Positions 19,011-20,234 of a stretch of 64,000 nucleotides of DNA are shown piece after piece (the first letter of the stretch is position 1; every line of letters begins with the position of its first letter). The notes beneath the pieces were generated by a model. The model saw only the letters and a program-made list of their open reading frames with translations, was not told the DNA's origin and ran no database searches. A program made the translations under genes and the position numbers. Source of the DNA: Escherichia coli (lineage in GTDB: Bacteria; Pseudomonadota; Gammaproteobacteria; Enterobacterales; Enterobacteriaceae); assembly GCF_030013205.1 (NCBI RefSeq), contig NZ_CP122648.1. One strand, 5' to 3'.

Positions 19011-20234
19011 TTACAGAAATGGTAAAGAAGGCATAATTCCCCGTGAAATACTGGCTAAGAAGCCTTTATCTGGTTGTTCTTCTTTATTGATTAAAGGAAG
19101 GTCATCCAAATCGCCCAGCAAATACGTATTTTTTGCCTGCCAGTCAATCATCCATATTTTCAGCAGTGGATAAGCCAGACCGCCCGTAATCCCGGATATC
19201 ACTACCAACGCACACATGCGATAAAGCATACCGTGGTAAGTTAAAGTTGAGCGAAAACGAATACGCCCATCATTCAGTGACAGGTTGCTCATAAAATGAT
19301 TTCGCAACGACACCGTTAAATAACTGGTGCTAACAGCAATCCCAAAATAATAGATTAACTGCGCGATTATCATTTTACGTTGCATTTCCATAAATTGCTG
19401 TAAATTCTCAATATCATCATTTGCATACACAGAACTATCATACGCATTTAATATTTGATCGAAGATAATATAACCAGCAACAGCGAGAAAAGGTAATAAA
19501 GCTAAAAATGCGAGGATGGCATATTTTATACAATACGCAGTATCTAATTTCACCTTGAAACGATGTATACCGAAACTGGTATTGCTCCAGAGAAAACTCA
19601 TTACCAGGCTATATAAAGTACCATTAAAAATACCAATGGAAACAATACCAACTATTGCCATCAGAACCACAGATATAATAACACTACTTGAACTATTGGC
19701 ATGTAGCATCTTTGTCGAGATAAAGAAAACAGTCCCCATCCCAATGGCCATTAAAATCGGCAAGAAAAAGGTTACTCACCAGAACCCTTTCATAGAGCAA
19801 TTAAAACTAAATCTTACGCCGTTGAGACTAGTCATCAAGGCCTGATAACGCAGTCCTTTTGCTGCCATAAATATAAGCAAAACCAACAGTGACAAAGTCA
19901 AAACACAGCCAATAAGCGGCATATCTGCTGACACTGTCATTAAGATTGCGAAATAGAAAAAAACAAAAACAAGACAACTAACAAAAACATTCCCACCGGT
20001 AATCCCATAAGAAAATCGTTGTCCGTTAACCTCCATATTAGCATAGAGATAACGCTTACATTTCATTAATGCCCATGGTAAATAGATACCTAGCGTTATA
20101 ATCGTTAACAACACATTCACCACACAAATAAGAAAATATCTCTCACCTGTACCATGAAAAACAAACGAATGGGACGGAACATCCATTTCATTAATAACTT
20201 GAGCCATAAAAATTCCCTGAATTAAAAAATCCAT
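19011..20234 (-). pseudogene. yjgN: DUF898 inner-membrane protein YjgN interrupted by in-frame TGA
   Basis: Two adjacent same-frame ORFs (152 aa and 250 aa). Junction reads ...KGFW-TGA-VTFFLPILMAIG, where remembered K-12 has TGG (Trp). Confidence 0.7.

Follow-up and report, generated by a model that had tools for sequence, protein, structure and literature searches.

The yjgN gene in the Escherichia coli DNA analyzed here (a stretch of 64,000 nucleotides, referred to below as the window) carries a stop codon inside its reading frame, which raises the question of whether the gene has been lost, is still decoded through the stop, or has simply been misread by sequencing. The plus strand reads TCA at positions 19776-19778, corresponding to TGA on the minus strand, in frame in yjgN, with the residues ...NCSMKGFW before it and VTFFLPILMAIG / VTFFLPILMAIGMG after it. 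Elsewhere, the frame is open from the ATG codons at 20234 and 20207 to the natural TAA at 19011-19013 (minus strand), and this reading bore out the claim of an earlier note on this DNA that a TGA interrupts an otherwise continuous yjgN frame. The entire gene, a minus-strand gene, occupies 19011-20207 and is flanked by valS (16102-18957, plus strand) and yjgM (20400-20903, plus strand). Intact alleles comprise 398 codons plus a stop and encode an inner-membrane protein of the DUF898/YjgN family. The best explanation, to which we assign a probability of roughly 0.86, is an inherited nonsense mutation, shared throughout a lineage, by which a dispensable membrane protein of the DUF898 family is inactivated.

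The number given to the interrupted codon depends on the start codon chosen. RefSeq and the K-12 annotation both start yjgN at the ATG at 20207 (MAQVINE), which gives a 398-codon gene with the stop at codon 144. A Shine-Dalgarno (SD)-like AGGGAA lies five bases 5′ of this start (20213-20218, minus strand) and pairs with the anti-SD sequence at −5.1 kcal/mol; the RefSeq start is therefore supported, and with it the numbering of the stop as codon 144. The ATG at 20234 is preceded by no SD-like site (+0.9 kcal/mol against the anti-SD sequence), and the in-frame extension of nine codons that it would add (MDFLIQGIF; 20208-20234, minus strand) is probably untranslated. The earlier note had counted from this extension, so that its codon 153 is right from the ATG at 20234 but becomes codon 144 in the RefSeq and K-12 annotation. 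A few public protein records also use the start at 20234, as seen in entries of 152 and 407 amino acids.

The state of codon 144 before the change was read from intact relatives. In a gene alignment, K-12 W3110, O157:H7 PV15-279 and O103:H2 CEC12044 all carried TGG at this codon and were annotated as intact with 398 amino acids. The earlier note had given TGG for K-12, which proved correct: the codons are TGG TGG GTG in K-12 W3110 and TGG TGA GTA in the window. Over the whole gene, K-12 and the window differ at 29 of 1197 nt (97.6% DNA identity). The gene order holC-valS-yjgN-yjgM-rraB-argF is the same in the window, K-12, O157:H7 and O26, which identifies these genes as orthologs. An intact allele one base away was found in strain AH04, whose yjgN (annotated as WP_032301158.1) is 100% identical over 1197 nt to the gene of the window once nt 432 is returned to G; across 2397 bases, AH04 and the window differ at two. 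A Trp-Trp pair is also present at the aligned positions of a divergent class of yjgN alleles with 42% protein identity. Because TGG is found in the intact strains and Trp is kept even in this divergent class, Trp144 is, as judged from these alignments, a conserved residue and the ancestral state, from which TGA arose by a single G>A transition at nt 432 of the gene. The altered base is window position 19776, where the plus strand has T in place of the ancestral C. An in-frame stop is thus present where intact orthologs code for an amino acid and where relatives have a sense codon, as in a nonsense pseudogene.

The divergent class itself shows that E. coli has two forms of the yjgN locus. This second class occurred in 796 of 5426 complete genomes, also between valS and yjgM, and encodes a 395-amino acid “YjgN family protein” (for example, in strain ESM1.4) with approximately 69% DNA identity and 42% protein identity to the class found in the window. 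The genes flanking the divergent class are 93-96% identical.

The distribution of the TGA allele was examined with an exact 71-mer centered on the codon. Comparison with other strains, which the earlier note had proposed, gave TGG in K-12, O157:H7 and O103:H2. Of 5426 complete E. coli genomes, 236 contained the 71-mer in its TGA form, or 236 of approximately 4550 genomes that have the window's yjgN allele class. The same 71-mer with TGG was present in 1301 of the 5426 genomes, and most of the others vary at different bases. A 1224-nt segment consisting of the 1197-nt gene and 27 upstream bases, TGA included, was 100% identical in 30 of the 30 best matches listed. These carriers included O26:H11 11368, other O26 strains, O103 RM8385, O157:H16 98-3133, UMNF18 and ML35, together with isolates of cattle, pigs, a crow and produce. 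In a collection of 15 billion proteins, the exact 143-amino acid N-terminal product was found on at least 1000 public contigs and the exact 246-amino acid downstream ORF likewise on at least 1000, while the intact protein of the TGA haplotype was found on 892 contigs. RefSeq (PGAP) flags yjgN as “pseudo, internal stop” in all three TGA genomes inspected (O26:H11 11368, ML35 and ETEC4079), and the coordinates of the pseudo CDS of ETEC4079 correspond exactly to 19011-20207 of the window. ETEC4079, a pig strain from Belgium (NZ_CP122643.1), is identical to the window over 64 kb except for an 8-bp tandem repeat, TTATATAT, at approximately 22700-22730, of which the window has one unit fewer.

The surroundings of the TGA codon are nearly invariant among carriers. 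Compared with the window, the flanks in ML35 contained one mismatch in 4224 nt, and those in O26:H11 11368 contained two mismatches and two gaps in 7224 nt. Across positions 8000-32000 of the window, many genomes were 99.9-100% identical except for an IS1. Each of the rarer variants of the 143-amino acid fragment has one residue changed relative to the main form (T20A on 103 contigs, V102F on 24 and L110I on 1), and a further single-residue variant, I99V, occurred in a 152-amino acid call on the same background. Among the variant 143-amino acid fragments examined, all of which share this background, no evidence of a second origin of the stop was found. Given these near-invariant flanks, the intact AH04 allele and the single-residue fragment variants, the data fit a single mutation on one haplotype that may then have spread clonally or by recombination.

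Several other features of the window were recorded. The IS1 copy at approximately 23434-24201 (transposase 23457-24154, minus strand) separates yjgL from the degraded “DNA-binding protein” pseudogene next to it and probably explains the approximately 3% of positions 8000-32000 that is missing from other carriers of the haplotype. An integrated island at 1-8379 adjoins the tRNA-Leu(CAA) gene leuX (8295-8379, minus strand) and contains genes for a site-specific integrase (6294-8204), a recombinase, an AbiJ-NTD4 domain protein, an HTH protein and a NIPSNAP protein, as well as a frameshifted DUF1643 gene at 4357-4823. The pepA-holC intergenic region contains an imperfect tandem repeat at 15308-15606, in which 15308-15508 and 15404-15606 are 93% identical at an offset of approximately 96 bp; this is probably a repeat cluster of the REP/BIME type.

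The effect of the stop on the protein was predicted from the translated gene. When codon 144 was read as Trp, the translation matched Pfam DUF898 (PF05987) over residues 13-369 and scored 164.1 bits (cut-off, 28; E value, 6e-48). Kyte-Doolittle analysis placed hydrophobic segments at residues 25-43, 65-83, 98-116, 145-163, 176-194, 231-249 and 331-349 (all approximate), and a weaker one at approximately 283-300 was judged by eye. The stop is located at the start of the fourth of these segments. The 143 codons before the stop remain translatable (19779-20207, minus strand) and cover approximately three of about eight hydrophobic segments, so that of 398 residues approximately 64% would be lost, together with about five of the eight predicted membrane segments. 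The remaining 254 codons and the natural TAA (19011-19775, minus strand) are open and the same as in the intact allele, but they lack a convincing start codon. A BLASTP comparison of the N-terminal part of YjgN with its C-terminal part gave nothing significant (E value, 2.9); since neither part is recognizable as a repeat of the other, half of the protein is unlikely to replace the whole. We infer that truncated YjgN would be inactive.

Little is recorded about the function of this family. No NCBIfam model for YjgN and no relative in the PDB was found, and the titles, abstracts and some full papers searched yielded no functional report on yjgN or DUF898. The FSscan paper used yjgN codons of approximately 22-26 as a weak test case for +1 frameshifting, a site unrelated to codon 144, and a preprint listed yjgN among the genes that vary between ST131 subclades.

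Loss of yjgN is also found outside the TGA haplotype. The gene is interrupted by IS4 in RMDEC465, within a few bases of codon 144, and by IS1 in E70 and in Res13-Lact-PEB21-38-A; these insertions are inactivations of yjgN independent of the TGA. A contiguous yjgN copy covering at least 80% of the gene was missing in 41 of 4629 genomes of the window's allele class. The insertion knock-outs indicate that complete loss of yjgN is tolerated. They concern the same gene as the TGA allele but differ from it in being insertions in single strains, whereas the window has a point mutation on a widespread haplotype.

Taken together, these results are best explained by a sequence of events in which a single G>A transition changed Trp144 from TGG to TGA on one E. 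coli haplotype that is now present in many strains. Translation from the normal start would then end after 143 residues, and the loss would be neutral or nearly so, yjgN being dispensable. The gene would be a young pseudogene, in which everything beyond the stop has stayed intact because the nonsense event is recent. No secondary decay is seen there, which fits a young pseudogene but would also fit continued use, and the carriers, being 100% identical over 1224 nt among the 30 best matches listed and differing only by single residues in the N-terminal fragment, contain too little variation for a dN/dS analysis. The true nonsense mutation was among the options named in the earlier note, and it is the one favored by the ancestral TGG, the spread of the TGA and the missing recoding signals.

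The alternative that retains the most weight, although we consider it unlikely, is that the TGA strongly reduces expression of yjgN (a knock-down) but does not abolish it: the UGA would be misread by Trp-tRNA(Trp), and wild-type YjgN at perhaps 1% of the normal level would suffice. UGA is the leakiest stop codon of E. coli, with readthrough of approximately 2% at 37°C and 4% at 25°C in K-12 reporters, where Trp-tRNA(Trp) and RF2 compete for the codon and thereby determine the level (PMC10570021). As the residue lost at codon 144 is Trp, readthrough of the UGA by tRNA-Trp would recreate ancestral YjgN exactly, and the frame after the stop is fully intact. Low-level full-length YjgN is thus expected from background UGA readthrough of a generic, not a programmed, kind. 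Such cases are known as pseudo-pseudogenes or tolerated in-frame stops: Feng et al. (2022; PMC9122581) reported low-level translation of many Salmonella pseudogenes, and Belinky et al. (2021; PMC7918605) reported purifying selection on stops that lie in frame. The yjgN of the window resembles them in having a single in-frame stop in a gene that is otherwise intact and still transcribable, and a full-length product is plausible at a low level. No structure or motif was found at the site itself, however, and the stop is not conserved beyond one haplotype. The base after the UGA is G, and UGA followed by G is not known as a leaky context. RF2 is also more active in wild, non-K-12 strains than in the K-12 reporter strains. 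The readthrough cases reported in Salmonella, in contrast, were mainly UAG with a neighboring C (PMC9122581). Moreover, the insertion knock-outs in other strains show that even complete loss of yjgN is tolerated. Generic readthrough is the sole route of rescue left by the data, and nothing at the site favors it. A stronger form of the same idea, in which the TGA allele is kept as an attenuated gene, with approximately 1% wild-type YjgN made by tRNA-Trp readthrough, heterogeneously from cell to cell, and with this down-tuning tolerated or exploited by successful lineages such as O26:H11 STEC and porcine ETEC, appears marginally less probable still; the gene would in that case be a natural pseudo-pseudogene of E. 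coli.

It is also conceivable, but very improbable, that the gene now functions in two pieces, with the 143-amino acid N-terminal piece and a re-initiated C-terminal piece assembling in the membrane as a two-chain YjgN. In-frame restart candidates are present 15 nt (TTG) and 27 nt (ATG) past the stop, and the stop, at the edge of segment 4, separates hydrophobic segments instead of splitting one. Both pieces are predicted by gene callers on at least 1000 contigs, although such prediction is mechanical. SD sequences at the TTG at +15 and the ATG codons at +27, +39 and +69 were weak or absent, with pairing energies of −3.0 kcal/mol for the TTG at +15 and +0.3 kcal/mol for the ATG at +27, compared with −5.1 kcal/mol at the real start. 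A restart at either of these two codons would begin inside the fourth hydrophobic segment (145-163) and cut into it. There is no sign of adaptation, the sequence being that of the intact allele except for one base, and PGAP calls the gene a pseudogene.

Programmed recoding, in which the UGA would encode selenocysteine or be decoded by a dedicated opal suppressor, has a negligible probability; nothing speaks for it beyond the codon being UGA. A selenoprotein gene has a SECIS hairpin after the UGA and Cys or Sec in its homologs. Here, every relative examined had Trp at the homologous position and none had Cys or Sec, and the 66 nt from the UGG of Trp143 onward folded at −15.6 kcal/mol (z = −1.16), no better than chance, with 27 of 200 shuffled sequences folding as well. 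The sequence downstream of the UGA is unchanged from that of the TGG alleles, as seen in the comparison with AH04, so no recoding element has evolved there. A permissive Rfam scan of 18900-20450 returned seven matches (E values, 0.92-6), all with 16-23 bits against thresholds of 40-90 and none at the stop. No suppressor tRNA or selenocysteine tRNA was found in the 64-kb window, whose lone tRNA gene is leuX. Programmed readthrough is marked by a stop and a stimulatory context conserved across diverged relatives, whereas this stop was found on one haplotype only. The suggestion of readthrough in the earlier note therefore holds for a generic, low-level kind, which is possible, but not for a programmed kind, for which no signal was found and against which the stop is confined to one haplotype.

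Among the sub-threshold Rfam matches, weak sRNA hits (MicC, sraA and STnc430; 17-23 bits) clustered at 18916-19088, in the region where valS and yjgN converge on their terminators. These matches most likely reflect a shared terminator hairpin and not an sRNA.

A sequencing or assembly error in the window's record, with a true base that gives TGG, was the remaining option of the earlier note and is excluded by the public data, because the TGA 71-mer recurs in 236 independently finished complete genomes, the full gene in 30 of the 30 best matches listed and the fragments on at least 1000 contigs from several sources. Nothing found in the data spoke for such an error.

The nonsense mutation thus agrees with what is already on record for this gene. 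The pseudogenes annotated in RefSeq for O26:H11 11368 (ECO26_RS34420), ML35 (C1I23_RS22585) and ETEC4079 (QDW55_RS22040) have the same gene, haplotype and stop as the window and are the same allele. The K-12 gene (b4257), which encodes a 398-amino acid DUF898 inner-membrane protein, is like that of the window in its position between valS and yjgM and in its DUF898 match, but its codon 144 is TGG and its frame runs to full length. The yjgN of the window is an ordinary nonsense pseudogene, already known and annotated as such in RefSeq.

For annotation, these results mean that the TGA of yjgN should not be “repaired” as an error. The C>T change at window position 19776 (plus strand) marks a haplotype common to O26:H11, O103, O157:H16, ML35 and porcine ETEC strains. 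Strains with TGA and TGG on this one haplotype (for example, AH04 for TGG) form a natural near-isogenic pair for the study of YjgN/DUF898 or of UGA readthrough. For E. coli, the finding adds one lineage-specific pseudogene of an uncharacterized and evidently dispensable membrane protein.
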